The notes under the pieces were generated by a model, which saw only the letters and a list, made by a program, of their open reading frames with translations, was not told the DNA's origin and ran no database searches. A stretch of 64,000 nucleotides of DNA from Coraliomargaritaceae bacterium (GTDB lineage Bacteria; Verrucomicrobiota; Verrucomicrobiia; Opitutales; Coraliomargaritaceae), in assembly GCA_965656495.1 (NCBI GenBank), contig CBFHKU010000002.1, forward strand, positions 169,161-233,160. The letters run 5' to 3'. Position 1 is the first letter of the stretch, and each line of letters opens with the position of its first letter. Positions 7,383 to 41,761 of the stretch are shown in pieces. A program made the position numbers and the translations under genes.

Positions 7383-8348
7383 CTACTGGACTGGAGCGTG
7401 ATTAAAATTATCAGTTATGAGCACCACACAGTCTTCCGATGCGACAAACTCGTAGCTGCCGCTCGCTGGCAGTAACACATTGTCGCCAAGTCGCAGCTCA
7501 CAGCCGCCGCTTTCTTTCAGCGAACCGGATACTACGCTTAAAATTCTGGGCTGCCCGGATGGAAACTTCAGCGTTTTGCCCGGAGTCAGCGTGCGGCGAT
7601 ACAGATTAAAGACATCGCTCATCGCCAGCGTTTGATCCTCGCCCTCCGGCTTCAAGGTTTCTGGCTCGAAGTCTTCGAAGTCGGAGCTACGCATCGATTC
7701 TTCAATGTGCAATTCACGCGGTGCGCCATCGAGGCCCACACGCCCCCAGTCATACACACGATAAGTTGTGTCGGAGTTCTGCTGAATTTCGAGAATCAAA
7801 TTGCCACCACCGATCGCGTGGATGCGACCACTGGGAATGAAGATAGACTCCCCGGACTTCACCGAGATGCTGTGCACCAAGTCTTCCAGCTCGTTGGACT
7901 TCAGGCCTGCTTCAAAGTCGTCACGTGTAACGCCCTTCTTCAGGCCCGCCATGAGCGTTGCGTGTGGTGCAGCGTCGGCGATATACCAGTTCTCAGTCTT
8001 CGGTTGGCCATTCAGCTCCGGTGCAATGTCTGCCGGTGGATGCACCTGCAAACTGAGCTTTTCCTGGCAATCCAACCATTTAACCAGAATTGGAAACGGC
8101 CACTCCGCCTTCCAACCTGAACCCATAATTTGTTCGGGGTCAGATTCGATCAATTCTCGCAGTGAGCTCCCCTCCTCGGTCAGAGACTGAGCCTCCGGAC
8201 GATCCACTAAATCCCAGCTCTCGCCGATGACCTTACCTTCCGGCAAATCATCACGGCCGAGCTTCTCTTGAAAATCAGTACCGCCCCAAACGCGTTCCTG
8301 ATAAATGGGCTTAAACTTAATTGGTTGGATGGAAGTTTCGATAGTCAT
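7383..8348 (-). CDS. manA: Mannose-6-phosphate isomerase, class I (cupin)
   Basis: VWGG, IGESW, FPILVKWLD, LSLQVHP, PKTENWY, GRIHAIG, EIQQNSDTTYRVYDW. Confidence 0.93.
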   Translation of the reverse strand: MTIETSIQPIKFKPIYQERVWGGTDFQEKLGRDDLPEGKVIGESWDLVDRPEAQSLTEEGSSLRELIESDPEQIMGSGWKAEWPFPILVKWLDCQEKLSLQVHPPADIAPELNGQPKTENWYIADAAPHATLMAGLKKGVTRDDFEAGLKSNELEDLVHSISVKSGESIFIPSGRIHAIGGGNLILEIQQNSDTTYRVYDWGRVGLDGAPRELHIEESMRSSDFEDFEPETLKPEGEDQTLAMSDVFNLYRRTLTPGKTLKFPSGQPRILSVVSGSLKESGGCELRLGDNVLLPASGSYEFVASEDCVVLITDNFNHAPVQ

Positions 8349-8360
8349 CGGAATGAATGC

Positions 8361-9353
8361 TTAGAGTTTTTGAGAAAGTTCAGCCCAGAGTGCTTCGAAG
8401 TCTGGAGTGAAGCTATGACATAGCGGACGTGTACCGCTGTCGATGATATTGCCCTCCTCGAGACCATACGGTGCAAAACCAGCTAAACGCACGGAGCAGA
8501 TGCCTGCCGCGCTGTCTTCGATACCGATCACGTGATGGCGCTTCTCAAATGGAATACCGAGACCGACACGTGCGGTCTCTGCGTAAAGCCATGGGTGTGG
8601 CTTTGGCGAAAGCTCACCAAGTGTGCCAGCTGAACCCTTGCGCAGCGGATAGCCCGCCGTGATGATCGCATCGTAGAAGTCTTCCGGCTTGCCCATGTCG
8701 AGTGTGCGGAAGCCGTCGAGGATCTCAGGCCATGCCTTCTCGTAGAGACCGGAGGTGACGAGGCCGAGCTTCACGCCCTTATCCTTGAGAGCGTATAGAA
8801 AGTCCTTGATACCCGGCGATGGAGTGAATGCACCCGGACGTCCACGGCCCTGCATGATCTCATTCATCTCATGGTGCGTGTGCTTGAAATACCAGTCGCG
8901 CGCTTCCTCGACGCTCTTGTCCGGGCAGTATTTGTTCACGCAGTAGCTCAAGTGCTCGGACACACTGTGACCGGAAACAAATGGCAGGTCGGCGTTTTCG
9001 AGCTGGAACCTCGAATCACCCAGCAAGCTCGCGGTGGTCATCTCGATGATCCAGATCCAGAATTCTTCACTGCGGATCGTGGTGCCATCGAGGTCCATGA
9101 GCACCGCTTCGACTGGATTGTCCACGCGGATCGGGTCGACCGGATAGTAAGCCGGGTAACCCATCTCCGACTTGACCAGTGCCATGGTGTGATCAGCCCA
9201 ACCGATGAACTCGATCTTGCGATCGGTCGTGGTGACGATGTCGAGCACCCCGCCCTGCCCCGTCTTGAAACGGGCGTCAGCGGTTTGTTCGAGAGCGTGC
9301 AGACCTTCGTCGGCTGCGGAGAATTCAAGTGCAGCAAATGCTTGTTCTTGCAT
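8361..9353 (-). CDS. HAD-superfamily hydrolase (beta-PGM/CbbY-like) with ~80-aa N-terminal extension
   Basis: Motif I DLDGT, motif II VTSG, motif III PKPHP, motif IV IEDS. Start placed at MQEQAF (9353). Confidence 0.85.
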   Translation of the reverse strand: MQEQAFAALEFSAADEGLHALEQTADARFKTGQGGVLDIVTTTDRKIEFIGWADHTMALVKSEMGYPAYYPVDPIRVDNPVEAVLMDLDGTTIRSEEFWIWIIEMTTASLLGDSRFQLENADLPFVSGHSVSEHLSYCVNKYCPDKSVEEARDWYFKHTHHEMNEIMQGRGRPGAFTPSPGIKDFLYALKDKGVKLGLVTSGLYEKAWPEILDGFRTLDMGKPEDFYDAIITAGYPLRKGSAGTLGELSPKPHPWLYAETARVGLGIPFEKRHHVIGIEDSAAGICSVRLAGFAPYGLEEGNIIDSGTRPLCHSFTPDFEALWAELSQKL

Positions 9354-9372
9354 AATGATATGAAGTTGAGAG

Positions 9373-12201
9373 TTAAGCGAGTTCGAGCGCAACGCTAACA
9401 ATCTTCTTTGGAGCCAGCTCAAGTTGGAAACCGGCATCGTTCACTGCAAGTGCGTCGGAATCGTCTTCGTTTAGGTTCGTTAAGGTTGCGGATTTCAGTG
9501 CGAACTTGCAGTTCACAGGAGAGACGACGGTTTCGTCAGTCGGATTAAACACACGGAGCATGAGACGGTCACCACGAGCTTCGCCCGTCAGGCCGCTGAG
9601 TTGAACGCGGGCGTCCTCAATCTCAAGGAAACCTGCCGTACTTGGGAGCGTGCCCTTGCGCGCCTTCGTCTCAGCAGCGATGAGCGGAGCGCTCTTGCGG
9701 TCGGCTTCCGAGAAGACCTTGGCAAGACCTTCACCACGGGCACCCGGATAGATGCTGTAGCTTAGCTCGTGCTCGCCTGCGCTTTGAGCAAGCTCACTCG
9801 GCTTGTGCTCCAAGTCAAAGTCGCCAGCGGTGCAGAGGTTGTTCTCATACGCACGCATCAGTGTCAGCGCGTAGGTGCGTGCGTCATCTTCGAGCACTTC
9901 GTATTCCTTCAAGCCGCCACTGATGAGTGTGAAGTTGCGGGAATCGTTGGCGATACCACTGAAGCGGAGCATTGGATAGGTGAGATGCGGCACGTAGTTG
10001 TATGGGTTCGCATCGTCCTTCGGAATACGACGTGTCACCACATCGAACGGGCTTTCTGCGTAAGAGTCGTCACTTGCAACTGCAGTCGGGAACATCGCAC
10101 GCAGACGGTGGTTGGTGCACTGGTTGTCAAAGCGAACGGTCACATCGAGACTCTTGGAAGTCACGTCGAGGGTGTAAACCACCTCGATCTTGAAGTGCTG
10201 CATATTCTCCGCCTTGCGCTCGGTCAGACGCCAGTCGAAGCGGTCGGTCGAGCGCGGAGTGGTCTTCGGAATCTGCAGCTCAAACTCGACCACGATCGAT
10301 TGACGCACGGCACTGGACTCGGTCCATGTGCGAGTTGCCTTGGAGTCGAGCGAGTTGATCACGAGATCCTTGCCCGGCCCCATGTGTGTCCATGGGTGCC
10401 CCACCTCTCCATCGTCTTCGAAATAATTCAGGCCTGCGAATTGCTCGCCGCTTGCCTTGTCGAGCAGATCGACAGTGCCGTTCTCGTTGACGGATACAGT
10501 GAGGTGCTCGTTCTCCATCCTGAATTCGCTGACGTCGACGTCTTCAGCTTCAGCGGCGTTCTCGTCGATTGTCAGAACGAAGGTCTTGTAACCCAGTGCC
10601 GGCACATCGCTCACTACAAAGGTCAGCTTGAACTCGTCAGCGTAAGACATCAGAGCCAAGTCCGCATGATCACGGAAGACCTTGTTCTTGTGCTCGGTCT
10701 GCGCCATGTCGTGCGCGACTACGTTGCCCTGATCATCCGCCAACTTGAAGCCCCTCCAATCAACTTCTGCCAAACCTTCGCCCGGTGCAAACTCGTTGAC
10801 GAACTCACGCGGCACGTCGACGAATGCCTGCACCGTTTCGGTGCGTGCGGATGTGCTTGGATTGTAAACGGTGAGCACGACTGCCTTCCCAGAGAAGGAG
10901 CTGGTGTCGATTTGCCCTTGCAGCGAAAGTAACGACTCGCTCGTCACCATTTGCGCAACCGATTGCGCGTCCTTCATACGATAGATCGCGTCTTCTTCAA
11001 GGCGGTCGATTCCACAGCCTCCCACAGTATCATGCGGGTGACACTTCATGACCTGCTTCCACGCCACATCGATAAACGGCTGCGGGAAGGCCTTGCCGTG
11101 GATGTTCGCCAGCGCGGCAAACGGCTCCGCCATGCGAGTGAGTTGATTCTCCGTTTCAAACAGCATCACCTTCTGGCGGGAGCGCGCCGAGATGATGTCG
11201 TTGGCTATATAGGAGTAGCCTAGATCATTCATCTTCACGTGGCGCGGTTCGCTGTCGAGCGTCGGCAATGCATCAAGATCCGGGCACGCATCCTTGATCG
11301 CTTGCGCGTACTTCGGCATCGAGCTCAGAAAGAAGGTTTCATCATCACCAAGGTCTTGCTGGCAGAGGTCCAGCAACTCCTTCTCGCGCAAGTCCGGCGT
11401 GGAGGTATCCATTCCATGCATACAGGCGATGTGTTCAGTCGTGAAGTGTTCCTTCTCATCCTCAATCAGCTTGCGATAGGTCTCACGAGCCAACTCGCCG
11501 TTCATCTTGCGATCTTCCGGCAAGACATAGCCGTGGCTAAAGCGGTTCTCGGAGTTACAAAGCTTAAACGGTGCAGCGTCTTCAAACCAGTGCATGCGAC
11601 GAAATAGACGATGCGCCAGACCCTCGTAGAGCGCTTCGCGCCAGACCCCAAAGTAAAAATTGTAACGCGCACCGGTGCCGAAGCGCGAGCAGAGCACCTT
11701 ACTGCCATCCACACCCTTCCAAGCAAACTCGGCACCCGGCGCCTGTTCCTTGGTGATGCCACGATAGAAGAAGCAAACATCGATATCAAAACCACGGTAG
11801 ATCTGCGGGAACTGTGAGCACTGCCCCCAGCCAAATGGCGTGTAACCAACTTTCATCACATCGCCGAACTCCTCAACGAGGCGATGCCCATAAAGCATGT
11901 TCCGCAAAATCGATTCACCGGAGATGCAATTCATATCCAGCGCAGAATACCAAGGCCCCGCATTGATGCGCCCTTCCTTGATATATTTGCCAATAATCGC
12001 CTTGTTCTCAGGGCGGATTTCAAAGTAGTCCTCAAGCGGAACGGCTTGGGCATCCAACAGAAAACAATAGCCCGGAACCTTCTCCATGATCTCAACCAAA
12101 TCATCGAGGAAATCCACGGTCATCTTGCGCGTGTGCTGAAAGTCCAGCGTCCACTCGCGGTCCAAGTGCGTGTTGGGTATAAAATGAGATTTAGTAGCCA
12201 T
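9373..12201 (-). CDS. GH38 alpha-mannosidase-fold protein (MngB-like) lacking the canonical nucleophile
   Basis: THLDREW (Zn ligands), FLLDAQ, GPWY, SGESILRN, CHPHDTVGGC, MENEHL, NHRLR. The nucleophile motif reads GYTPFGWG instead of GYxPDxFG. Confidence 0.88.
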   Translation of the reverse strand: MATKSHFIPNTHLDREWTLDFQHTRKMTVDFLDDLVEIMEKVPGYCFLLDAQAVPLEDYFEIRPENKAIIGKYIKEGRINAGPWYSALDMNCISGESILRNMLYGHRLVEEFGDVMKVGYTPFGWGQCSQFPQIYRGFDIDVCFFYRGITKEQAPGAEFAWKGVDGSKVLCSRFGTGARYNFYFGVWREALYEGLAHRLFRRMHWFEDAAPFKLCNSENRFSHGYVLPEDRKMNGELARETYRKLIEDEKEHFTTEHIACMHGMDTSTPDLREKELLDLCQQDLGDDETFFLSSMPKYAQAIKDACPDLDALPTLDSEPRHVKMNDLGYSYIANDIISARSRQKVMLFETENQLTRMAEPFAALANIHGKAFPQPFIDVAWKQVMKCHPHDTVGGCGIDRLEEDAIYRMKDAQSVAQMVTSESLLSLQGQIDTSSFSGKAVVLTVYNPSTSARTETVQAFVDVPREFVNEFAPGEGLAEVDWRGFKLADDQGNVVAHDMAQTEHKNKVFRDHADLALMSYADEFKLTFVVSDVPALGYKTFVLTIDENAAEAEDVDVSEFRMENEHLTVSVNENGTVDLLDKASGEQFAGLNYFEDDGEVGHPWTHMGPGKDLVINSLDSKATRTWTESSAVRQSIVVEFELQIPKTTPRSTDRFDWRLTERKAENMQHFKIEVVYTLDVTSKSLDVTVRFDNQCTNHRLRAMFPTAVASDDSYAESPFDVVTRRIPKDDANPYNYVPHLTYPMLRFSGIANDSRNFTLISGGLKEYEVLEDDARTYALTLMRAYENNLCTAGDFDLEHKPSELAQSAGEHELSYSIYPGARGEGLAKVFSEADRKSAPLIAAETKARKGTLPSTAGFLEIEDARVQLSGLTGEARGDRLMLRVFNPTDETVVSPVNCKFALKSATLTNLNEDDSDALAVNDAGFQLELAPKKIVSVALELA

Positions 12202-12392: not shown

Positions 12393-13370
12393 ATGTATTC
12401 TGCAAACAGATACGACCACCAGCCCTACAATCGAGTCGGCAACAGCGGTCTAAAACTTCCGGCAGTTTCTCTCGGAATGTGGCATAACTTTGGCCCCCAT
12501 GACTCAGAGTCGAACCAAATTGAATTGCTGCAAACAGCGTTTGATAAGGGCATTACACACTTTGATTTAGCCGACAATTACGGAGGGGGGCATGCAGAAA
12601 TCCATGTAGGCCGCATCCTTAGAAATCATTTCGCGCAGCATCGCGACGAGCTCATCATTTCCACCAAGGCAGGTCATCCCATGTGGGATGGCCCCTACGG
12701 CAACTGGGGCTCACGCAAGCACATGCTCGCCGGACTCGACCAAAGCCTACAGCGCCTAAAACTCGACTACGTCGACATCTACTACCACCATCGCCCCGAT
12801 CCGCAAACACCGATCGAGGAAACTGCCCAAGCACTGGCCGATACAGTGCGCCAAGGCAAGACACTCTACGTGGGCATCTCAAACTACCACGGCGAAGACG
12901 CGCGTCGTATGATTCAATGCATGCGAGAAACAGGCGTCCCTTGCCTGATCAATCAGCTACCCTTCAACATGCTTGATCGCAATGCCTCCGAATCCGGCGA
13001 ATTCGATGCTCTAATTAAAGACGGCGTTGGCGCCATCACATTCTCTCCTCTTGCCCAAGGTTTACTATCAAGCCGATACCTAAAAGGCATTCCTAAAAAT
13101 TCACGTGCCGCAACTGAAGGGACCTGCCTGAAGCGAGACCAAGTAAGCGAGTCCCTGCGCGGCAAGGTCCAAAAAATCAACGACATCGCACTATCCCGCG
13201 GCCAAACTCTCGCACAAATGGCGCTCTGCTGGAATCTCAGCTTCTCTCCAGTTGCATCAGTCCTCATCGGAGCCAGTCAAGCCTCTCAAATCATTGAAAA
13301 CGTCGAAGCGTTAAAAAAACCAAGTTTTTCAGTCGAAGAACTGAATCGAATCCAAGAGGTAATCAATTGA
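12393..13370 (+). CDS. Aldo/keto reductase, L-glyceraldehyde-3-phosphate reductase (Gpr/YghZ)-like
   Basis: SGLKLPAVSLGMWHNFG, FDLADNYG, ISTKAG, GPYGNWGSRK, DYVDIYYHHRPD, SPLAQGLL. Confidence 0.9.
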   Translation: MYSANRYDHQPYNRVGNSGLKLPAVSLGMWHNFGPHDSESNQIELLQTAFDKGITHFDLADNYGGGHAEIHVGRILRNHFAQHRDELIISTKAGHPMWDGPYGNWGSRKHMLAGLDQSLQRLKLDYVDIYYHHRPDPQTPIEETAQALADTVRQGKTLYVGISNYHGEDARRMIQCMRETGVPCLINQLPFNMLDRNASESGEFDALIKDGVGAITFSPLAQGLLSSRYLKGIPKNSRAATEGTCLKRDQVSESLRGKVQKINDIALSRGQTLAQMALCWNLSFSPVASVLIGASQASQIIENVEALKKPSFSVEELNRIQEVIN

Positions 13371-13450
13371 GAGAGTGCCTAGCTGGGTTTAATCCTTTAA
13401 GCCAATATTCTCGTGACAAGCATCGCTGTTTTACCACTATTTTACCACAA

Positions 13451-14476
13451 ATGCCAAAACGTATTACCTCCATCAAAGAAATCGCCAAGCTAGCAGGGTG
13501 CTCCATTGCAACAGTCTCCAACACCCTCAACAACAAGGGGCGAATCAGCAAGGAGGTCAGAGACAAGGTGCACCTTATTTGCCAAAAGCACGGCTATTCC
13601 CCGAACTCCGCCGGTCGCAACCTCCGCCGCCGGCAAAACGAAACAATTGGCCTCCTCTTCTACCCCAACTGTGGCGCGATCTTCCGCAACATCTTCTACG
13701 CAGAAGTCATGGAAGCTCTCGAAGCAGAAACCGCCGGTAAGGGGTATGATTTACTGCTCGCGGGCTTCGACAGCAGTGGTTCCAAAGATAGTATGCCGCG
13801 CTTTGTACAACAAGGAAAAGTCGATGGTATTGTCATGCTGGGCCGCTTTCCACGGGTGGATGTTAAACGCATCAACCGCTATGGCGTACCAATCCTCCAG
13901 CTGGATAACTTCCGCAGTCAAATCAAAGTCGATTATGTTACCTCCGACGGATTTAACGGCTGTAAGAAGATCGTCGACGAGCTTGTTAAACTGGGCCACC
14001 GCCGCTTTATCTTTATGGCTTACTCGCATGAGGACACCAATGCCGATCAACGCGAATCCGGCTTCCTTGCAGCAGTCGAAGCACACAAATTGCCGAAGAC
14101 ATCCAGTGCCAGTATTCGCGACTTTGAGGATTATCAAACCGCTTACAGTCGCCTCAAAAAACGTCTCCAGTCCAAGCACCCTCCGACCGCAGTGGTCGCC
14201 GTCAATGACACGCTCGCAATTGAGCTACAAGAATGCCTTCAGCAGGATGGCTACTCCATCCCCGACGACATCAGCATCGTAGGCTTTGACGATGACGACA
14301 TCTGCCTGAAAGCGACACCACAAATGTCCTCCGTGCGTGTGAATAAAAAGCTCCTGGGAAAAACCGGTGCTCAGATAATCATTGATCGAATCTGCAACCC
14401 ACAGAAAACTACCGAAAGCGTGCATCTACCCGTTGAGGTCGTTTTCCGCGAGTCAGTGGGCAAGCCCGCGCACTGA
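13451..14476 (+). CDS. LacI-family transcriptional regulator
   Basis: HTH SIKEIAKLAGCSIATVSNTLN, YSPNSAGRNL, sugar-binding domain with IPDDISIVGFDD. ATG at 13451. Confidence 0.93.
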   Translation: MPKRITSIKEIAKLAGCSIATVSNTLNNKGRISKEVRDKVHLICQKHGYSPNSAGRNLRRRQNETIGLLFYPNCGAIFRNIFYAEVMEALEAETAGKGYDLLLAGFDSSGSKDSMPRFVQQGKVDGIVMLGRFPRVDVKRINRYGVPILQLDNFRSQIKVDYVTSDGFNGCKKIVDELVKLGHRRFIFMAYSHEDTNADQRESGFLAAVEAHKLPKTSSASIRDFEDYQTAYSRLKKRLQSKHPPTAVVAVNDTLAIELQECLQQDGYSIPDDISIVGFDDDDICLKATPQMSSVRVNKKLLGKTGAQIIIDRICNPQKTTESVHLPVEVVFRESVGKPAH

Positions 14477-14581: not shown

Positions 14582-15853
14582 ATGAAATCACACCCTTACT
14601 TCGAAGGACACGCACTCAAGGACGGGAAGCTCTGGGTGAACGGCGAGCACCGGTTCCTTAAAACCGGCAAACCACTGCGCGATTACGGCAATGCCGAACA
14701 AATTGAAGCGCTGATCGCAGATTTACCGATCATTGCCGACAAGGGCTACAACAACATCGCAATCAACTGCTACTGGCATCACTTCAATCCCTCGGGTGAC
14801 GGCGCGATTGAGATCTCCGTCGAACCACTCAAGAAGTTGATAGCGGCAATCCGGGAACATGGCATCTATGTCAGTCTCTCAGTCGAAACCTATGGAGTCG
14901 GCGGCGGTCAAATTCCAGAAGGCTTTTGGAACAACCACCCGAAGGCGCTTGCGGTCAACCATCACGGCGAGTTCTCCTCCGACACCGAATACGGCTACGG
15001 CACTAAGGTGCCTTCCCTGTTCTACGGAGCCTATCTAACTGCATCACGCGCTTACATGACAAACCTTGTCGCGGCGCTTGGAGCAGAAAACTTCCTCTAC
15101 TTTGAAACCACCGTTGAGCCTCAATTCATGGGGGCACAATGGCTGGATTATAGCGAAGCGGCTAAAAAAGCATACACCGAATGGCTTAAAAACAACGGCG
15201 ATGCGGACTCCCAACCCTTTCCCGAGACCTTCCCCGCCAGCGAAGCATTTCGCACCAGCAAGTCTTGGAATACCTTCCGTGCCCAAGCACTCGCGGGCTG
15301 GATCAATGGCGACGCTCAAGCACTGCGCAAAGGCTCGAGTCACCCAGAAATTTGGATCGCAAGCGACTATCTCGACGCCGAAGACTTTACACTGCAACAG
15401 CGCTGCGGCGACCCGCTCGAGCTTCTGCGCAACATGACTGAGACCGATATCATCCAAGTCAACTGGGCATGGTGTAATATCGACCGCAAGCCCAACCAGA
15501 AGGCCTACGACCGCGTCATGCAAGTCATGCAAGAGACCGGACGCGACTGGGTCGTGACTGAGCACATGACAATTAACGGCGCCGACTACTTTGAGAGCGA
15601 TATGGACGGCCTACTGCGTAATACCTTGGAGAATGGCACTCACTTCGGCTGGGAGTTTGTTGATATTTGTGCCGACACCGATAGTCCGGACACCAAGCCA
15701 AATGATATTCTACCGGGTGACTTCAAGCCACAACATTTCTCTGTCTATAATGCCGATTGGAGCCCAAAACCGCCGATGAAGGTCGTCGAAGAAAACTGGG
15801 CTCAATGGATGGATATGGCAGTTGCCAGTAACGCCCCTATAGTCGAAGCATAA
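14582..15853 (+). CDS. Uncharacterised glycoside hydrolase, clan GH-A-like TIM barrel (GH35/GH42-like N-terminus), no signal peptide
   Basis: GYNNIAINCYWHHFNP resembles the GH35/42 start. Candidate acid/base TVEPQF and candidate nucleophile VVTEH. Confidence 0.55.
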   Translation: MKSHPYFEGHALKDGKLWVNGEHRFLKTGKPLRDYGNAEQIEALIADLPIIADKGYNNIAINCYWHHFNPSGDGAIEISVEPLKKLIAAIREHGIYVSLSVETYGVGGGQIPEGFWNNHPKALAVNHHGEFSSDTEYGYGTKVPSLFYGAYLTASRAYMTNLVAALGAENFLYFETTVEPQFMGAQWLDYSEAAKKAYTEWLKNNGDADSQPFPETFPASEAFRTSKSWNTFRAQALAGWINGDAQALRKGSSHPEIWIASDYLDAEDFTLQQRCGDPLELLRNMTETDIIQVNWAWCNIDRKPNQKAYDRVMQVMQETGRDWVVTEHMTINGADYFESDMDGLLRNTLENGTHFGWEFVDICADTDSPDTKPNDILPGDFKPQHFSVYNADWSPKPPMKVVEENWAQWMDMAVASNAPIVEA

Positions 15854-15872: not shown

Positions 15873-17189
15873 ATGAAACAAACCTTCCAAAGACTTACGG
15901 CAGGTGCGATCTATGCTCTACTCGGCAGCCTTGGCACAACTGGCTGCGCAACGAACGAGCAAACTAAAGCTCAACCCGTGCCGACTGCCAATGGCATCAC
16001 CGGTAAAGTGTTTGCCGGTTACCAAGGCTGGTATCGCACGCCGACCGATGGCTCAGGGCTTGGTTGGGAGCACTACGAAACTTATGACGAAGACTTCACT
16101 CCTGGTGAAGCTGGCATCGATTTTTGGCCGGACGAAAGCGAACTAACAGAAGCCGAAAAATATGTCACTGAATTCAAGCACGCGGACGGCAGCCCGGCAT
16201 ATGTATTCACCTCAGAAAATGCGACAACAGTTGACCGCCACTTTAAGTGGATGAAAAACTATGGTATCGATGGCGTCTTCCTACAGCGCTTCGCCCACGA
16301 TGTACTCGAGGGCGGGCACCACCAGTGGAGGCTACTGCAACCCTCCAACAATAAGATCGCTGCGTATGTGCAGCAGGGCGCTCAGGCACACGACCGTGCT
16401 TACTCAATCATGTATGACTTCTCCAGTATTCGCCATGGCGAGATGCACCTGATAATGGATGATTGGCGAGGCCTTTGCGATCGCCTTGGCCTGCTGGAAG
16501 ATCCGAACTATCTGCATGAAAATGGCAAACCACTGGTTGCGATCTGGGGTGTCGGTTTTTCAGACGGACGCAAATATACCTTGGATGAAGTCGCGACCTT
16601 TATCGACTTCCTCAAGAACGACCCGGAATACGGCGGCTGCAGCGTGATGCTTGGCGTGCCTACCTACTGGCGCGAACTAACCAGAGACGCGGTCAGCGAC
16701 CCAAAACTCCACGACCTAATCCGCAGCGCCGACGTCGTGCTACCCTGGACCGTGGGTCGTTTCGGTGGTTCGCAAGCGGCACTCAAGCGTGGTGCCGATT
16801 ACGTCGCACCCGACCAAGCATGGTGCGATGCCAATGGCGTAAAATACATGCCCCTCGCCTTCCCTGGCTTCAGTTGGGCCAATCGAAAAATCAAGCAAAA
16901 CCCGAATGTGAAGTTTAACCATATCCCACGTGAAGACGGCCTTTTTATGTGGTCGCAAGCAATCGCCGCCAAGCGTGCAGGCGCTGAAACCCTTTACCTC
17001 GCTATGTTCGATGAGATGGATGAAGGCACACAGATTTTCAAAGTCAGCAACAACCCACCGGTCGGTGAAACCCGGTTTCTGACTTATGAACCACACGCGC
17101 CTGATTATTACCTACGCCTAAGCGGTGCGATTGGCCGCCTGCTTCGTGACGAAATTCCAGCCACCAATACCCTGCCTAAACAATTTTAA
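15873..17189 (+). CDS. GH71/GH99-like glycoside hydrolase, lipoprotein
   Basis: Lipobox-like LGTTGC, GYQGWY, GIDGVFLQRF, MYD, PGFSWAN, YLAMFDEMDEGT, DYYLRL. Confidence 0.82.
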   Translation: MKQTFQRLTAGAIYALLGSLGTTGCATNEQTKAQPVPTANGITGKVFAGYQGWYRTPTDGSGLGWEHYETYDEDFTPGEAGIDFWPDESELTEAEKYVTEFKHADGSPAYVFTSENATTVDRHFKWMKNYGIDGVFLQRFAHDVLEGGHHQWRLLQPSNNKIAAYVQQGAQAHDRAYSIMYDFSSIRHGEMHLIMDDWRGLCDRLGLLEDPNYLHENGKPLVAIWGVGFSDGRKYTLDEVATFIDFLKNDPEYGGCSVMLGVPTYWRELTRDAVSDPKLHDLIRSADVVLPWTVGRFGGSQAALKRGADYVAPDQAWCDANGVKYMPLAFPGFSWANRKIKQNPNVKFNHIPREDGLFMWSQAIAAKRAGAETLYLAMFDEMDEGTQIFKVSNNPPVGETRFLTYEPHAPDYYLRLSGAIGRLLRDEIPATNTLPKQF

Positions 17190-17233: not shown

Positions 17234-19249
17234 ATGTCCGCACTCAGTTCAATCGACATCACAATTATCGTTGCCTACCTCTTCCTTACGATGGCGGTCG
17301 GTCTCTACATGACAAAACAGGCCTCCAAGAGCCTCGATCACTACTTCCTCGGAGGTCGCTCACTACCCTGGTATTTCCTTGGTATGGCTGGCATGGCTAT
17401 GTGGTTTGATTTGACGGGCACCATGATCATCACTGCCTTCCTATACATGCTCGGGCCCAAGGGTTTGTTCGTAGAGTTTCGTGGTGGCGCCGTTCTAATT
17501 CTAGCCTTCTTGATCTGTTACACAGGCAAATGGCACCGACGTTCGGGTTGTATGACCGGCGCGGAATGGATCGCTTACCGATTCGGCACAGGTGCCGAAG
17601 CAAAATGGATGCGTGTCTTTAAAGCGGCATCAACCTTCCTAATTACGATTGTGCTACTCGCCTATCTCGTCCGCGGAACCAGTCTTTTCGTCGGAATGTT
17701 CATCCCCTATTCGCCGATGGTCGTCACCGGCATCATCATGGGAGCCTGTGCCCTTTACACCATGATGGCGGGTTTTTACGGAGTTGTGCTAACCGACGTA
17801 GTGCAGGGCGCCATTGTTTTGATTTCCTGTATCATTGTCTCGGTCATGGCTTTCATGATGGTTCCTGACGTTGGCTTCATCGCGGATCTGGCTCAGCAAG
17901 TGACCGGTAACACCACCTGGACCGAGAGTATGCCCAAGTGGCAAACCGAGATGCCGCCAGGCTACGGCGATTATGAGTTCCTCATCTTTATCGCCTTCTT
18001 CTATCTATTACGCAACGTCCTCTACGGCCCGGGCACAGGTGACGAGAACCGCTATTTTGGCGCAAAAAGCGATCGTGACTGCGGTCTGCAGTCCATGCTC
18101 CAAGGCGTCACGGTGGCCTTCCGCTGGCCCATGATGATGGGCTTTGCGGTCATGGGCTTGTTCCTTGTCAGCAATCTATTCCCCGACATGAGCAAAACGG
18201 TGGATGCGGTCCAAGCGATCAAGCAATACCACCCCGAGATCGTTGAAACCAAGGGCATGTGGAACGAGTTGACCACCAGTATCGTCAACGCCCCCGAGAA
18301 GCAAGACCCAGCCCTTATCCAAAGCCTCGAAACATCCCTGGGCGAAGACTGGAGAAATCGTCTGGTTGTGATTGCCTTTGAAGGCGGGGTCAATCCGGAG
18401 CAAATCCTTCCTGCCGTCCTACTCAACAGCATTCCAACTGGTCTCAAGGGCTTGCTAATGGTCGCGATGCTCGCGGCTATGATGTCGACCCTTACAGGTG
18501 AAGTGAATAAGACATCCGCTCAATTCGTTAAGGATATCTACAAAGCTTCACTCCGCAAAACCGCCGGGAATAAGGAACTGATCGCAGCCGCTTACGTCTC
18601 CTCTGCTTTCATTGTGGTCGCATCCTTCGTGATCGGCATCTACGCCGAAAGTATCGACGAAATTTGGAAGTGGTTCCTCATGGGCCTCACTGCAGGCTCG
18701 ATCGGTCCTTACGTTCTGCGTCTCTACTGGTGGCGTTGTAATGCCTGGGGCCAAATTGGCGGCACCGTGATCGGTGGCGTCTCCGCAATCGTTCAGTATG
18801 CTATCTGGCCGGACCTGGACCAAGTGCCCCTGTTCATCATCATGACAAGCATCTCAGTGATCGGGACCGTAGGTCTATCCTACCTGACCCCAGCGACACC
18901 CATGCCGATCCTGTTGAATTTCTACAAAACGACCCGCCCATTCGGATGGTGGGGACCCCTGAAGAAACAAATGGATCCAGAAGAATATAAGCTCTGGGCC
19001 AAGGAACACCGCGTCGATATCATCTCAGTACCGTTTGTGATGCTCGCGCAGATTACAATCTTCCTCCTGCCGATGCAGTTGATCATTAAGGCTTACAGCT
19101 CCTTCTTCATCACACTCCCAATCTTCCTAGTGTCTGCCGCAGGCGTTTACTGGTTCTGGTGGCGTAACCTGCCAACCAAGGACAACCCAGGCACCGATCG
19201 AGCCGACCCAATGGCGGGCGTGCGCGAACTAGAGCAAGCGGAGACTTAG
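17234..19249 (+). CDS. Sodium:solute symporter family transporter
   Basis: Multiple TM helices, YFLGGRSLPW, GVVLTDVVQG, GLKGLLMVAMLAAMMST, LRLYWWRCNAWG. Confidence 0.92.
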   Translation: MSALSSIDITIIVAYLFLTMAVGLYMTKQASKSLDHYFLGGRSLPWYFLGMAGMAMWFDLTGTMIITAFLYMLGPKGLFVEFRGGAVLILAFLICYTGKWHRRSGCMTGAEWIAYRFGTGAEAKWMRVFKAASTFLITIVLLAYLVRGTSLFVGMFIPYSPMVVTGIIMGACALYTMMAGFYGVVLTDVVQGAIVLISCIIVSVMAFMMVPDVGFIADLAQQVTGNTTWTESMPKWQTEMPPGYGDYEFLIFIAFFYLLRNVLYGPGTGDENRYFGAKSDRDCGLQSMLQGVTVAFRWPMMMGFAVMGLFLVSNLFPDMSKTVDAVQAIKQYHPEIVETKGMWNELTTSIVNAPEKQDPALIQSLETSLGEDWRNRLVVIAFEGGVNPEQILPAVLLNSIPTGLKGLLMVAMLAAMMSTLTGEVNKTSAQFVKDIYKASLRKTAGNKELIAAAYVSSAFIVVASFVIGIYAESIDEIWKWFLMGLTAGSIGPYVLRLYWWRCNAWGQIGGTVIGGVSAIVQYAIWPDLDQVPLFIIMTSISVIGTVGLSYLTPATPMPILLNFYKTTRPFGWWGPLKKQMDPEEYKLWAKEHRVDIISVPFVMLAQITIFLLPMQLIIKAYSSFFITLPIFLVSAAGVYWFWWRNLPTKDNPGTDRADPMAGVRELEQAET

Positions 19250-22682: not shown

Positions 22683-24221
22683 TTAGCGGGTAATCAATGC
22701 CCATGCCTCACGATACAAGTCAGCGGCGTCTTTCCATTCAATGCTCCTGCCCTCAAAGTCACCCAGACTTTCGCCAAAAGCCGATAGCCACAGATCTTCT
22801 CGGAACAAGTGCAGTTGATCCGGCTGGATCGATCCATGACGCGCGACAAACTCCGGCATCATCATCAGGCCACGGCGGAACTGGTCTGAGCTTGCACGTG
22901 CTGCTTGTAGCCAATTGCAGCCATGCTCCAGTTCACTGGAACTCGGTGTACGCCCAAGCATTTCCTCGTAGGCCGTCGTGACAACAGCCATCACTTCAAT
23001 CTCGCCGTAGGCATAGTCACGATACCCCATCGAATTGCGCGGCAAGTGATTACAGCGCAACAAGTGCGATATATGGCGCTCCATTTTCTTAAATTCCGGC
23101 TGTATTTCACAATCGGTGACAACTTCCGGGTTCATGATAAAGGCCGTTGGATCGTCCGGTGGGAGTTGGGGATTCAAGCCCTCTCCGATTCCTGAATAGC
23201 GCGCGCTGCTTTTATTGCCGGTAATAGTGAACTCACTGATGCCACTCAGGATGATACCGTAAGCTGCGGCATCACCGCTTATTAAATTATTGGTTACTGA
23301 GCCGCCGACAAAGGTAAAGCCCTTCTTGCTCGGCACCCAAGGGACGGCTCCCACTGGAATTCCCATGTGGATTCGGCCACCCCGCGCATCAATCCAGTTG
23401 TCATTGATCACCACCCCGCGGTAATCGATCCGCGTTTCGTCATCCTCGAAAGCCCAGAACTTGAGCGGATCCACAAGGTTTATGCCCCCAAGCGATTCGC
23501 GTGCCACTGCAGCAATAACATTCCCTTCCGATACGCTCCCCGGCGCACCGAAAAACACCATCCCAACATCCGTCGGGTCGATGATAACATTATTACGAAC
23601 CGTAGTGCGCTGCGCCGCACAGGAAATGCCATCTCCCCATGACATGCCATTGATATGTGGGTTTTCGGTGCCTTCGCGACCGTTGCCACGCACATCCGCT
23701 CCAGCTCCGAAGAATATGTTATCCTCCACCAACACATCAGAACCGCCTTCGTGCACCTTCAGCGTCGACCAGGTGCGCGCCCCCACAAATACACAACGGC
23801 GCACCACCTGTCGTTCAGCCCCCTTCCCTCCAAAGAAAACCATTGGAGGCCCGCCAAATTCTTTCGACAGTGACGAGAGTCGGTAGCGGTTTCCGTCCAA
23901 AACGACCTGTTCAATGACAACACCGTCAAGATGGTTGCCATTGATCAACTGCCCCTGCTCCCGGTTCGCGATGCGCAAGGTGGCATAATCGGACAAGGAC
24001 TTTGGCTGATAAGTCGCAATGCGCTGCCCTTCCCATTTGAAGACGAGCGGCGCGTTCAACTCATAGACCTGCCCCGCTTCCAGCAGCAAGTCATCACCGG
24101 CATCCAGAACCGCCTGCAGATCGTTACCGACCGGTGTCGTTTGCCCGATCAAAAAGAGCGGCAACCACGCCATTGAAGCACCGAGCGCAACTGAAAGAGA
24201 TAAACGCATGGTAGAATTCAA
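22683..24221 (-). CDS. Secreted right-handed beta-helix protein with C-terminal DUF4214-like module
   Basis: Repeating V-x-x-N strands, WGDGISCA...NNVIIDPTDVGMVFFGAPGS. C-terminal AYEEMLGRTP...PEF. Start may be 24209. Confidence 0.7.
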   Translation of the reverse strand: MNSTMRLSLSVALGASMAWLPLFLIGQTTPVGNDLQAVLDAGDDLLLEAGQVYELNAPLVFKWEGQRIATYQPKSLSDYATLRIANREQGQLINGNHLDGVVIEQVVLDGNRYRLSSLSKEFGGPPMVFFGGKGAERQVVRRCVFVGARTWSTLKVHEGGSDVLVEDNIFFGAGADVRGNGREGTENPHINGMSWGDGISCAAQRTTVRNNVIIDPTDVGMVFFGAPGSVSEGNVIAAVARESLGGINLVDPLKFWAFEDDETRIDYRGVVINDNWIDARGGRIHMGIPVGAVPWVPSKKGFTFVGGSVTNNLISGDAAAYGIILSGISEFTITGNKSSARYSGIGEGLNPQLPPDDPTAFIMNPEVVTDCEIQPEFKKMERHISHLLRCNHLPRNSMGYRDYAYGEIEVMAVVTTAYEEMLGRTPSSSELEHGCNWLQAARASSDQFRRGLMMMPEFVARHGSIQPDQLHLFREDLWLSAFGESLGDFEGRSIEWKDAADLYREAWALITR

Positions 24222-27612: not shown

Positions 27613-27719
27613 GCCCCTACTTGCGTGAAGGCTTTTTTGGTCGGGGTGACAGGATTGATTCACTTCGCCAAGGGCTTCGCCCCAATGCTACCCATTGCCC
27701 TTCTTCGCTTCGCTGCGTC
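27613..27719 (-). repeat. Distal part of a tRNA-Pro-linked repeat (tRNA 3' copy plus degenerate terminator)
   Basis: TGGTCGGGGTGACAGGATT at 27638-27656 is the last 19 nt of tRNA-Pro. GCCCTTCTTCGCTTCGCTGCGTC at 27697-27719 is repeated at 29178-29200. Confidence 0.8.
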
Positions 27720-27836
27720 TAATTCTACAAAATGATAAAACATCCCCACTGCCGGCAATGAGGATGGAAATACAAATTTAGAAAATAACGCCATAATCAC
27801 ATAATTTTTGATCTGAAAGGAAGCACATGTACGTGT

Positions 27837-27861
27837 AATTTTAAAGTTGAACTTTCAAATT
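27837..27861. promoter_or_regulatory. 25-bp palindrome upstream of the AAA+ ATPase (candidate operator)
   Basis: AATTTTAAAGTT-G-AACTTTCAAATT, 11/12 complementary, about 20 bp before the ATG. Confidence 0.5.
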
Positions 27862-27880
27862 GCATAACAATACTAGAGGC

Positions 27881-29050
27881 ATGATTCAAAGAACCGCAGC
27901 AAAGCTGATAACTCAACTAGCAAAAGAATTTCCAGCAGTAGCGATCACGGGCCCTAGGCAATCCGGAAAAACCACCCTGGTCCGTGAGTGCTTCAAAACA
28001 AAGCCTTACATCAACCTGGAAGATCTTGATCAGTATCAATTCGCGAAGGGAGATCCAAAGGGATTTTTAGGACAATTTAAGAACGGAGCCATATTAGATG
28101 AAGTGCAGCGTTGCCCGGACCTCTTCAATTACCTACAGCGCATCATCGATGAAGATCAACGTAACGGCCTCTACATCCTCACTGGTTCTTCTCAATTTCA
28201 ACTCAACAAACAGATATCGCAAAGTCTCGCGGGAAGGGTCGGAAACCTCTCACTGCTACCCTTCTCCATTGCCGAATTAAAAACGGGAAGAAAATTCAAC
28301 GAATCCATCGATCACAATCTATTCCATGGCTTTTATCCACGTATAATCGCCAAAGGCAGCACACCGCGACGGTGGCTCAACGCCTATATCGAGACCTACA
28401 TTGAAAAAGACATACGTCAATTAATGGAAATAAAAAACCGCGACCGCTTCCTGCGCTTTATTTCTCTATGCGCGGGCAATGTGGGTTCCCTACTCAACCT
28501 AAGTCGTATTGCAGCCGATTGCTCCATCACGGTGCCCACCGCAAAGTCATGGCTAAGCGTGCTGCAAGCCTCCTACATTTGCTTCACGCTCAAACCACAT
28601 TCCAGCAACTTCAGGAAACGAATCGTTAAGACGCCAAAGCTCTACTTCTACGACGTTGGACTTGCCTGCCGGCTCCTTGGAATTCAGGAGGAGAGCCAAA
28701 TAAAAACGCATCCTCTACGTGGCAGTTTATTCGAAAATATGGTCGTCACCGATCTGCTCAAAACAAGATTAAATCTGGGAATCGACCCTTCCATGTTTTT
28801 TTGGAGAGACAGTGCCGGACTTGAAATCGATCTAATTCTTGAGAATAACGACAAGCTACAACCAATAGAAATCAAGTCCGGCGAAACATTCACCGCGTCC
28901 TGGATGAATAATCTAAATAAGTGGCGCACCCTTGCCGCCAATAACAGCACTCAAGCAATGCTTTGCTATGGGGGTAACTGGACAGGACAGCGATCAGAAG
29001 CAAAAGTGTTACCATGGCACAAAGTCGTCCAAATAAATGAGTGCCCTTAG
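27881..29050 (+). CDS. AAA+ ATPase (AAA_14) with DUF4143 C-terminal domain
   Basis: Walker A GPRQSGKT, Walker B ILDEVQ, LTGSSQ, SLAGR, KTPKLYFYDVG, RGSLFEN, EIDL...IEIK. Confidence 0.92.
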   Translation: MIQRTAAKLITQLAKEFPAVAITGPRQSGKTTLVRECFKTKPYINLEDLDQYQFAKGDPKGFLGQFKNGAILDEVQRCPDLFNYLQRIIDEDQRNGLYILTGSSQFQLNKQISQSLAGRVGNLSLLPFSIAELKTGRKFNESIDHNLFHGFYPRIIAKGSTPRRWLNAYIETYIEKDIRQLMEIKNRDRFLRFISLCAGNVGSLLNLSRIAADCSITVPTAKSWLSVLQASYICFTLKPHSSNFRKRIVKTPKLYFYDVGLACRLLGIQEESQIKTHPLRGSLFENMVVTDLLKTRLNLGIDPSMFFWRDSAGLEIDLILENNDKLQPIEIKSGETFTASWMNNLNKWRTLAANNSTQAMLCYGGNWTGQRSEAKVLPWHKVVQINECP

Positions 29051-29145
29051 GCGTTTTGCTCTGGTGAAGCCATACAGGGGCGGATCACGTTGACGCCTGA
29101 ATTCTTCAGGGTTTTGCGAAACTCTTTCGTAAAAAGCGGATCATC
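29047..29145 (-). pseudogene. Fragment of an integrase-core (rve) IS transposase
   Basis: DDPLFTKEFRKTLKNSGVNVIRPCMASPEQNA resembles the D-R-D-x-x-F...G-V...SP-x-x-N segment of rve transposases. Truncated on both sides. Confidence 0.6.
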
Positions 29146-29177
29146 CTCACAAAACTGTATCGTGATCCAACTCAGTG

Positions 29178-29423
29178 GCCCTTCTTCGCTTCGCTCCGTC
29201 AAACCTGCTTCGCAGATTCTCATCTCTGGCACCCAACGACAAAAAAGCCCCCACTTTCGTGGAGGCTTTTTTGGTCGGGGTGACAGGATTGCTACGCCAT
29301 CTCGCTTCGCTCGTCGAACCTTTAGGTGCGGCTTTCGCCGCATCGCCGCTGCGCGGCTCCTTTCGAATCCTGTCACCCCGGACGGACGCAAAAAAACCTC
29401 CATGGGAGAATGGAGGTTTATTT
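29178..29423 (-). repeat. tRNA-linked repeat units downstream of tRNA-Pro (terminator, antisense T-arm/acceptor copy, GGTTCGAC/GAGCGAAGCGA motifs, tRNA 3' copy)
   Basis: Terminators at 29390-29423 and 29241-29271. Antisense tRNA copy TTCGAATCCTGTCACCCCG at 29362-29380. Sense 3' copy at 29272-29290. Confidence 0.8.
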
Positions 29424-29500
<77 letters not shown>

Positions 29501-40511: not shown

Positions 40512-40651
40512 AAAACTAATACAAATAACGCCCATGTCAGCTGTCTTGACAAGCCATGAACACCCTCGCTTTAAAAATTCTGCTAACAATTACACTGTAA
40601 AAGAGTTTGCCACCTGCTTTCACTCACAATCTTCTATTCCTTAGCATTGAT

Positions 40652-41761
40652 ATGAATCATAAAAAACAAACGCTTGAAGAGCTTCAGCGCCTCTCACCCT
40701 CACTCGCCTCAAAGAAGGCCCTCGTTGGAATCGACGGATTTGTAGATAAGATCGTGCACCCCGTTGCCCAACGCAACGGCCCGGGCAAAGACTTCACCCG
40801 TATCGAAACCATCGCCGATTTCGGCGCGCGGATCAGTTCTGCAGCCGGTAAAAGCGCGAACCTCGAATTGGCCCCGGTGGTCGACAAGCTCGGCGGCAAC
40901 GGCCCCCTCATGGCAAACGCCCAGCGATGCCTCGGCGCGCAGGTCCGCTACATTGGCGCCCTCGGGAAAGATTCCGTGCATCCCCTCTTCACTGAATTTG
41001 CCGCTTTGACCGAGGCCATTACCCTCGCCGACCCCGGCGTCACCCATGCCGCTGAATTCAAGGACGGCAAAATCATGTTCGGTTCAACCGGAAGCCTCGA
41101 GACCATCACCTTCCCCTTCCTCCTCGAACATATCGGACTCGAACAACTCATCGAACTCTTCTCCGCACAGGACTCCATCAGCATGGTTAACTGGACCATG
41201 ATCCCCTACCTCTCCGAAGTCTTTGAGGGATTCCTCGAACAGGTCCTTCCCGCCGCAACGGCAAACCCTGACCGCCTCTTCTTCTTTGATCTCGCCGATC
41301 CCGAAAAACGTTCCCGCGAAGACCTCCTTCGCGTCCTCAAAATCTTCAGCCGCTTCGAGCAATTCGGAAAAGTCGTCCTTGGCCTCAATTATCGGGAGGC
41401 GGAACAAGTCGACGCCCTGCTCGGCTTTGAACCCCTCCCCAAATCGGAAGCAAACTTAAAGACGCAGGCGAGCCGCATCCGCGAGGCACTGGCACTCAAC
41501 ACCGTGGTGGTACACCCCGTTGAATGCGCGGTCTGCGCCAAGGCCGAAGGCGCTGCCTACGCCGAAGGCCCCTTCTGTGATAACCCTAAAATCACCACCG
41601 GGGCCGGTGATCACTTCAACGCCGGATTCCTTACCGCTTGCCTCATGGGACTCTCACCCGAGGCCGCACTGACCCTTGCGGTCGCCACCTCCGGTTTCTA
41701 TGTTCGCAACGCCCAGAGCCCCACGCTCGAGGATCTCAACTCCTTCATTCAATCCTGGTAA
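40652..41761 (+). CDS. PfkB/ribokinase-family carbohydrate kinase
   Basis: KLGGNG, LNYREAE, TTGAGDHFNAG. Confidence 0.85.
   Translation: MNHKKQTLEELQRLSPSLASKKALVGIDGFVDKIVHPVAQRNGPGKDFTRIETIADFGARISSAAGKSANLELAPVVDKLGGNGPLMANAQRCLGAQVRYIGALGKDSVHPLFTEFAALTEAITLADPGVTHAAEFKDGKIMFGSTGSLETITFPFLLEHIGLEQLIELFSAQDSISMVNWTMIPYLSEVFEGFLEQVLPAATANPDRLFFFDLADPEKRSREDLLRVLKIFSRFEQFGKVVLGLNYREAEQVDALLGFEPLPKSEANLKTQASRIREALALNTVVVHPVECAVCAKAEGAAYAEGPFCDNPKITTGAGDHFNAGFLTACLMGLSPEAALTLAVATSGFYVRNAQSPTLEDLNSFIQSW

Follow-up and report, generated by a model that had tools for sequence, protein, structure and literature searches.

The closest described relatives of the protein analysed here are SpGH38, the E. 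faecalis GH38 enzyme and E. coli MngB, all of glycoside hydrolase family GH38. In SpGH38 Asp125 is both the nucleophile and one of four Zn ligands, the others being His13, Asp15 and His351; Tyr192 is hydrogen-bonded to Asp125, Arg149 flanks it, Asp232 is the acid/base, and the Zn contacts O2 and O3 of the mannose (PMC2815779). Residue roles in the Drosophila enzyme were taken from PMC13204073. In this work we describe a GH38-like protein that has Phe in the place of the nucleophile. Its gene lies in a stretch of 64,000 nucleotides from a Coraliomargaritaceae bacterium (GCA_965656495.1, contig CBFHKU010000002.1, positions 169,161-233,160), which we call the window and in whose coordinates all positions are given, and it is followed by genes for a HAD-family enzyme and for ManA. 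The protein is probably a phosphorylase of some manno sugar, and on balance we favour a fuller reading of the sequence comparisons, in which it would be a Zn-dependent inverting alpha-mannoside phosphorylase giving beta-D-mannose-1-phosphate (beta-Man-1-P), with the HAD enzyme as a beta-phosphomannomutase.

Inverting alpha-glucoside phosphorylases of family GH65 are paired with a HAD-type beta-phosphoglucomutase (beta-PGM). The present system would share their logic, in which displacement by phosphate yields a beta-1-phosphate that is passed to a HAD mutase; in GH65 it is a single displacement by phosphate that gives the beta-1-phosphate (PMC8537180). The differences are considerable: GH65 has an unrelated fold, acts on gluco sugars and has no Zn, whereas the HAD protein found here falls below all beta-PGM cut-offs and carries an N-terminal extension. 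[quoted passage not shown] The GH130 and GT108 mannoside phosphorylases thus resemble the proposed enzyme in needing just these residues for mannoside phosphorolysis, but they convert beta-mannosides to alpha-Man-1-P on a beta-propeller fold, the opposite stereochemistry to the one proposed here. By analogy, the GH38 protein lacking the Asp (Asp-less in the following) would most likely work like a GH65 phosphorylase on manno sugars, as a mirror of GH130. A 2022 review counts 11 CAZy families that contain glycoside phosphorylases, without mentioning GH38, and the mannoside phosphorylases tabulated there give alpha-Man-1-P. In the open-licence literature, CAZy aside, we found no account of a GH38 phosphorylase, an Asp-less GH38, a beta-phosphomannomutase, or of beta-Man-1-P or heptosidases in such a role.

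The three genes are arranged as follows.

9373..12201, minus strand: GH38-fold protein of 942 amino acids, with the Pfam GH38 N-terminal, middle and C-terminal domains and without the catalytic nucleophile
8361..9353, minus strand: HAD-family enzyme of 330 amino acids with an N-terminal extension of about 80 amino acids (Pfam HAD_2/Hydrolase)
7383..8348, minus strand: ManA, class I mannose-6-phosphate isomerase (TIGR00218, 119.6 bits, above the cut-off of 116.2)

The ATG of the HAD gene, at 9353, is 19 nt past the GH38 stop codon and manA starts 12 nt past the HAD stop codon, in agreement with the tight gene order given in a preliminary description of this DNA. The GH38 protein contains the motifs THLDREW, CHPHD and MHGMD, the HAD protein DLDGT, VTSG, KPHP and IEDS.

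Family membership of the 942-residue protein, the only GH38 in the source genome, is clear. Pfam gave GH38 domains alone, the Atlas search returned GH38 labels exclusively, and neither a domain nor the fold of GH65 or GH130 was found. The predicted model (pLDDT, the predicted local distance difference test, 94.9) superimposed on SpGH38 (2wyi) with a Z score of 44.4 and a root mean square deviation of 2.3 A over 858 residues. The protein scored 413 bits with the MngB model (NCBIfam PRK09819), below the cut-off of 1138, and was 24% identical to E. coli MngB over 919 columns. With the SpGH38, E. faecalis and MngB group it shares the five-domain fold, His12, Asp14 and His390, Trp17, Arg147, Asp265 and Asp391; it differs by the missing Asp nucleophile, an Arg for the Tyr partner, an insertion of about 45 residues and a Trp in the place of Tyr574. 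That group is linked to the phosphotransferase system, the protein described here to a HAD family. A signal-peptide-like extension was absent from 129 of the 130 clade members examined, as had been stated for this protein, and we propose that it is cytoplasmic. A search among longer proteins for a GH38-HAD fusion found none: of 2834 candidates two matched, one with an acetylesterase domain and one artefact-like, which is weak evidence.

The codon at 11835-11833 (minus strand) is TTT, encoding Phe123 within GYTPFGWG. This motif aligns without gaps with GYFPDTFG of SpGH38 and the E. faecalis enzyme and with GYLPDSFG of MngB, so that Phe123 occupies the place of SpGH38 Asp125; the preliminary description had noted Phe at the Asp of bacterial GH38s. 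The same description held that the Zn ligands were kept; this is true of His12, Asp14 and His390, that is, of three of the four, because the lost Asp is itself a Zn ligand. The general acid Asp265, in MHGMD, was also correctly assigned. The protein is thus a GH38 by sequence and fold that lacks the Asp nucleophile and Zn ligand by which a retaining GH38 alpha-mannosidase is defined. Three DNA runs, each from a different study, gave contigs in which the Phe codon was unchanged; the fourth of the four runs, an RNA run, gave 4 short contigs that leave the codon uncovered.

To see how widely the replacement occurs we used two samples. In the close set (the query with the 120 top-ranking homologues) Phe stood at position 123 and Arg at position 179 in 118/118 covered rows, and Asp265, His390 and Asp391 were present in 121/121. 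An assembly error is ruled out by the independent assemblies and decay of a single gene by the clade-wide Phe. The distant set was drawn from the best 150 of 8295 representatives at 50% identity and is therefore a biased top slice; the query and those longer than 800 residues made 142 rows, nine shorter ones being dropped. Among these, 52 had the Asp and 90 did not (F47, T21, C7, S6, A4, N3, R1, G1). In an unrooted FastTree from which the trait columns had been removed the Asp label changed once, with a support of just 23. The rooted tree comprised 54 rows (28 of the 90 Asp-less and 20 of the 52 Asp-bearing proteins, MngB and 5 outgroups), and here 27 of the 28 Asp-less rows formed one branch nested among Asp-bearing ones, with an SH-aLRT (Shimodaira-Hasegawa-like approximate likelihood ratio test) value of 91; P0212 fell outside the Asp-less clade. 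Because of this nesting we regard the loss of the Asp as old and, as a clade-wide feature, derived. The P-F-x-W-G clade suggested earlier is therefore real as a deep clade defined by the substitution, but it is wider than that motif, the site being F, T, C, S, A or N. Named hosts belong to Verrucomicrobiota, Planctomycetota, Hydrogenedentota, Sumerlaeota, Calditrichota, Bacteroidota, Armatimonadota and Chloroflexia. At one metagenomic locus (L018:5280-10823) the Asp-less GH38 is part of a reading frame of 1848 amino acids, in which it is preceded by about 900 residues that match no Pfam family.

The loss of the Asp is accompanied by further changes around the active site, which involve the following features.

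11407..11409, minus strand: Asp265, general acid, matching SpGH38 Asp232 (alignment; 121/121 close rows and 88/90 Asp-less representatives)
11665..11667, minus strand: Arg179, at the place of SpGH38 Tyr192, proposed phosphate ligand (alignment, with a register caveat)
11497..11649 (limits approximate), minus strand: clade-specific insertion of about 45 amino acids with the conserved basic Lys213 (from the R147-D265 span)

Position 179 was Arg or Lys in 88/90 Asp-less representatives, while in the 52 Asp-bearing ones it was Tyr in 49 and basic in none; the Tyr that is hydrogen-bonded to the nucleophile in retaining GH38 enzymes has no conserved counterpart at 178-180. The register rests on an Asn two residues further on and on intermediate Asp-bearing proteins with Y-S-N-F-F-Y at this place. 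Arg179 is likely to be aligned with the Tyr partner of the nucleophile, but two smaller alignments disagree, phmmer having set the canonical WYSNG on residues 220-224 and a four-sequence alignment the MngB Tyr on Tyr180. The span between R147 and D265 was 113-126 residues in 90/90 Asp-less proteins, against a median of 74.5 in the Asp-bearing ones, and position 213 was basic in 93% and 2%, respectively. In the Asp-less proteins position 147 was basic or His in 88/90 (R68, K16, H4), position 121 was T, S or N in 80/90 and position 124 S or G in 85/90. His12, Asp14, His390 and Asp391 were retained. Tyr574 of SpGH38, which contacts O4, corresponds to Trp604 here, and Trp was found in 67/90 Asp-less proteins.

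No replacement carboxylate was evident in the alignment of the 142 representatives. Acidic gains were limited to positions 216, 351, 378 and 462. A relocated nucleophile could be sought at 216, acidic in 71% of the Asp-less proteins, or at 351, acidic in 84%, but 216 is Asn in the protein studied here and 351 is Glu also in 18/52 Asp-bearing proteins; taken together with a decayed gene or an assembly error, against which the spread of Phe and the assemblies speak, this explanation is hardly credible. By alignment, then, the pattern is that of an inverting phosphorylase, with a single acid and neither a nucleophile nor a base carboxylate. A protein without a nucleophile and with one Zn ligand fewer might also be a non-catalytic mannoside-binding or scaffold protein. 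We consider this very improbable, as Asp265 and other site residues are near-invariant among proteins about 30% identical, and the protein is the sole GH38 of its genome in a clade practically free of signal-peptide-like extensions.

The pathway that we favour is built on the residues, the clade, the fold and the gene linkage, its chemistry and the glycan being deduced from these, and would run as follows. GH99-like and GH42-like enzymes together with sulfatases would break down an alpha-mannan of marine origin, probably a sulfated one, and a symporter would import the oligomers. Zn would bind O2 and O3 of the terminal mannose as in GH38, and Asp265 would protonate the leaving group. Phosphate would sit where the Asp was and be bound by Arg147 and Arg179, by the open Zn site and by hydroxyls or amides close by; this pocket is deduced from the description of SpGH38, and the conserved gains at 121, 124, 179 and 213 may contribute to it. 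In one displacement the phosphate would attack C1 from the beta face to give beta-Man-1-P, the HAD enzyme would move the phosphate to C6, and ManA would convert the product to fructose-6-phosphate.

The HAD protein has the DxDGT, T/S, K and ED motifs and the fold of the superfamily. The earlier assignment as a mutase did not find support in sequence or fold: the curated beta-PGM model was not listed at E values up to 0.001, and MtlD phosphatase, CbbY and beta-PGM homologues topped the structural matches with similar scores, which does not discriminate a mutase from a phosphatase. Since sequence and fold do not decide, we turned to gene context. The HAD family numbers no fewer than 120 proteins, with identities of 66-72% or higher. 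In the 101 genomes of the family Coraliomargaritaceae a GH38 match was found in 21, in 17 of them Asp-less, in 3 Asp-bearing and in 1 uncovered at the site. The HAD was present in 17/17 genomes with an Asp-less GH38 (in 15 within a 1.5-kb flank), in 0/3 of those with only an Asp-bearing one, and not in the genome uncovered at the site. Among 401 genomes of the phylum 18 had the HAD, and 18/18 of these had an Asp-less GH38; for the 30 best GH38 matches of 76 genomes, 46 of which were not classified for the Asp, the HAD occurred in 18/20 Asp-less and 0/10 Asp-bearing genomes. At 80 metagenomic HAD loci an Asp-less GH38 was found in 42 (23 clusters at 90% and 6 at 50% identity) and an Asp-bearing one alone in 1, while 4 were uncovered at the site and 33 had no GH38 N-domain; 29 loci had no GH38 match at all, but merely 6 of these extend 3 kb on both sides. 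In the closest GH38 subclade the HAD accompanied 12/13 members. Two other HAD groups flank other Asp-less subclades at 8 loci; the HAD beside the heptose-linked subclade has hardly any similarity to the present one (E 0.02). Asp-less GH38s and the HAD alike have URO-D/MtaA-like proteins as repeated neighbours (L039, L042, L045, L047, L048, L070; L086, L097, L121, L140, L143), and a NUDIX hydrolase, of which there is none in the window, repeatedly adjoins the GH38, HAD and manA genes of relatives (L005, L006, L190, L192, L193).

A single family genome (G031) has the HAD without a GH38 match. There the HAD gene lies in a surface-glycan cluster between a gene for an HldC-like beta-1-phosphate adenylyltransferase and one for a GT9 glycosyltransferase (L186:1010-4623, G031:C51). 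No gmhA or heptose-kinase match was found in this genome, and gmhA was missing in 4/4 genomes of its genus. The HAD adjoins an HldC-like gene in four metagenomic loci of two lineages, three of them also with GT9; loci of this kind are L082, L084, L094 and L109. Nucleotidyltransferase domains of HldE accept beta- but not alpha-Man-1-P (PMC10948575). We infer that a HAD interconverting mannose-6-phosphate and beta-Man-1-P would explain both the GH38 and the HldC/GT9 contexts, and the cluster in a genus without gmhA is possibly a route to nucleoside diphosphate (NDP)-beta-mannose.

Mannose is suggested as the sugar by dedicated manA copies and by the lack of any gmhA or hldE match in the source genome. 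The gene is present in 94/101 family genomes, but directly after the HAD in G000, G007 and G009 alone, and in G007 and G009 it is an extra copy beside a second one elsewhere. The preliminary description had also stated that no sugar kinase is nearby. None was found among the 16 window proteins scanned; a Khk/PfkB kinase is nevertheless encoded at 40607-41761, 28 kb from the operon, and is 30% identical to the kinase that follows the GH38 in L010. A PfkB or Khk gene stands directly downstream of an Asp-less GH38 at L018-L020, L033, L034 and L010:3050-4240. The presence of a kinase is not decisive, because phosphorolysis of a dimer leaves one mannose that also needs a kinase.

The sugar need not be the same in the whole clade. 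Other Asp-less subclades adjoin GmhA or GSU2086-family genes in 9/80 GH38 loci, the latter family being presumably linked to heptose. Further neighbours are HldE (L053), a DHDPS-type aldolase, L-fucose isomerase, ribulokinase and a BNR sialidase-like gene. Asp-less GH38s near genes of this set occur at L021-L025, L030, L032, L053, L055, L062, L063 and L078, frequently as tandem pairs from two subclades, and L062:11607-12860 encodes a fusion of SIS and cytidylyltransferase-like parts. The sugar 3-deoxy-D-manno-octulosonic acid (Kdo) can be degraded by an aldolase route through D-arabinose. This gene set suggests catabolism of the Kdo and manno-heptose of the lipopolysaccharide (LPS) core, with heptosides as candidate substrates; inverting phosphorolysis of an alpha-heptoside would give beta-heptose-1-phosphate, the natural substrate of HldE. 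The ADP-beta-manno-heptose pathway (GmhA, HldE/HldC, GmhB, GT9) is a natural user of beta-manno 1-phosphates whose genes adjoin both the sister subclades and the lone HAD, but it is biosynthetic and obtains its 1-phosphate from a kinase and a phosphatase, and the source genome has no match to gmhA or hldE. It is conceivable from these neighbours, from the sulfatase-rich locus and from the Trp at the O4-contact position that the protein is a phosphorylase whose sugar is a manno-heptose or a mannose bearing sulfate or another substituent, or that the HAD is a beta-1-phosphate phosphatase, as its structural matches would allow. We consider this improbable, the heptose genes being missing from the source genome and an extra manA having joined the operon in two relatives, while a phosphatase would waste the phosphate bond just formed.

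Several points weigh against the alpha-mannoside phosphorylase pathway, besides the alignments that disagree over Arg179. As a conserved partner manA had to be rejected beyond the three close genomes, since it was found in 0/80 GH38 loci and 0/80 HAD loci; the linkage is local, and of the synteny predicted earlier only the near one-to-one link between the HAD and the Asp-less GH38 in Verrucomicrobiota stands. Elsewhere in the source genome there is one match to a ROK kinase, with three to PfkB-type kinases and two to alpha-phosphomutases, so that free mannose could be used, and at some loci an Asp-less GH38 has a kinase gene next to it (PfkB in 5/80 loci, Khk in L010, ROK in L029), as one would expect of hydrolases. 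The best structural matches of the HAD are mostly phosphatases, and its profile matches to beta-PGM structures are weak (E 3e-4 to 0.7). Away from the close subclade many genomes lack the HAD: it was found at 7/80 GH38 loci and in 32/77 of their genomes. Related genomes are not independent samples, and for this reason no statistics are given. The HAD gene of G031 is transcribed in the opposite direction from its neighbours. The HldC-like gene there scored 151.6 bits, below the cut-off of 181.5, and the genome is 90% complete. Finally, the bulky side chain of Phe123 may take up the space proposed for the phosphate.

The main rival, which we regard as unlikely, is a hydrolase without a protein nucleophile, the HAD being a sugar-phosphate phosphatase or an unrelated helper. 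O2 of mannose is trans to an alpha leaving group, and a Zn-activated O2 could form a 1,2-anhydro (epoxide) intermediate of the kind reportedly used by GH99; a participating 2-acetamido group, or a Zn-bound water acting with inversion as in GH92, are other variants. The contact of the GH38 Zn with O2 and O3 of mannose (PMC2815779), the kinases beside some Asp-less GH38s and the lack of a HAD match in 45/77 genomes fit such an enzyme. It leaves unexplained the strict basic gains at 179 and 213 and the near one-to-one HAD link in Verrucomicrobiota, and the alignment has no conserved second carboxylate to act as the general base. The phosphorylase interpretation of the preliminary description thus draws on the clade, the absence of a relocated carboxylate from the alignments, the new Arg179 and the co-occurrence of the HAD; its manA partner has fallen away, and phosphorolysis itself is our deduction.

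The neighbouring genes are the following.

12393..14476, plus strand: genes for an aldo-keto reductase and a LacI regulator, transcribed divergently from the GH38/HAD/manA operon
14582..15853, plus strand: GH42-like (clan GH-A) protein (Atlas feature match, GH42 in 28% of cluster members)
15873..17189, plus strand: GH99-like protein, candidate endo-alpha-mannanase (PF16317, 32.8 bits, just under the cut-off of 33)
17234..19249, plus strand: sodium:solute symporter, candidate oligosaccharide importer (PF00474; in 18/80 HAD loci)

The GH99-like gene (in 16/80 HAD loci), the symporter and sulfatases are repeated neighbours of the GH38/HAD pair, and the GH42-like gene is one in the close GH38 subclade (7/80 GH38 loci); the aldo-keto reductase recurs solely in very close relatives. 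A Pfam scan of the GH42-like protein gave no match, and the GH99-like protein matched GH99 structures weakly (E 7e-4). The region 4091-27550 around the operon encodes six or more sulfatases as well as a beta-helix protein (22683-24221). In the marine Polaribacter a polysaccharide utilization locus with GH195, GH92 and sulfatases serves the diatom sulfated alpha-1,3-mannan, which a GH99-related endo-mannanase and sulfatases break down (PMC13063451). The likeness lies in the marine setting, the GH99-related endo-enzyme and the sulfatases; the difference is that the final hydrolysis there is by GH92, that paper mentioning neither GH38 nor a phosphorylase, and that the glycan at our locus is a candidate. 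By this analogy the diatom mannan is a lead only for the substrate of the source locus. The sequencing runs containing the stretch are of marine or aquatic origin, and the nearest named relative is a Coraliomargarita metagenome-assembled genome (97%).

A tRNA-Pro(TGG) gene lies at 29424-29500, and its terminal 15-base piece has three more copies in 27642-29500 (4 matches against 0.21 expected). GH38 or the HAD was found in 0/6 genomes of the same genus, while another genus has copies 92-97% identical. The glycan cluster left of the tRNA gene may be an island. A promoter and terminator scan of the locus gave results at chance level, and a plasmid search zero matches spanning 80% of the query.

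A wider picture, drawn from the same comparisons, is tentative and in our view doubtful. The Asp-less GH38 clade would be a large family of Zn-dependent inverting phosphorylases for alpha-manno sugars, some acting on alpha-mannans and others on heptosides of the LPS inner core, whose beta-heptose-1-phosphate would enter the Gmh/Hld route; the partner HAD would be a beta-phosphomannomutase, also run forwards in some marine Verrucomicrobiota to supply an NDP-beta-mannose to GT9 where a heptose pathway is lacking.

If an alpha-mannoside phosphorylase is indeed encoded here, it would fill the missing stereochemical corner of mannoside phosphorolysis, and a retaining hydrolase family would have switched mechanism by exchanging its nucleophile for a phosphate pocket. 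Beta-Man-1-P would become a catabolic metabolite, and many genes labelled alpha-mannosidase or mannosylglycerate hydrolase would need re-annotation. Such an enzyme would also offer a reversible catalyst for alpha-mannoside synthesis and, in the family at large, a route for recycling the heptose of the LPS core.

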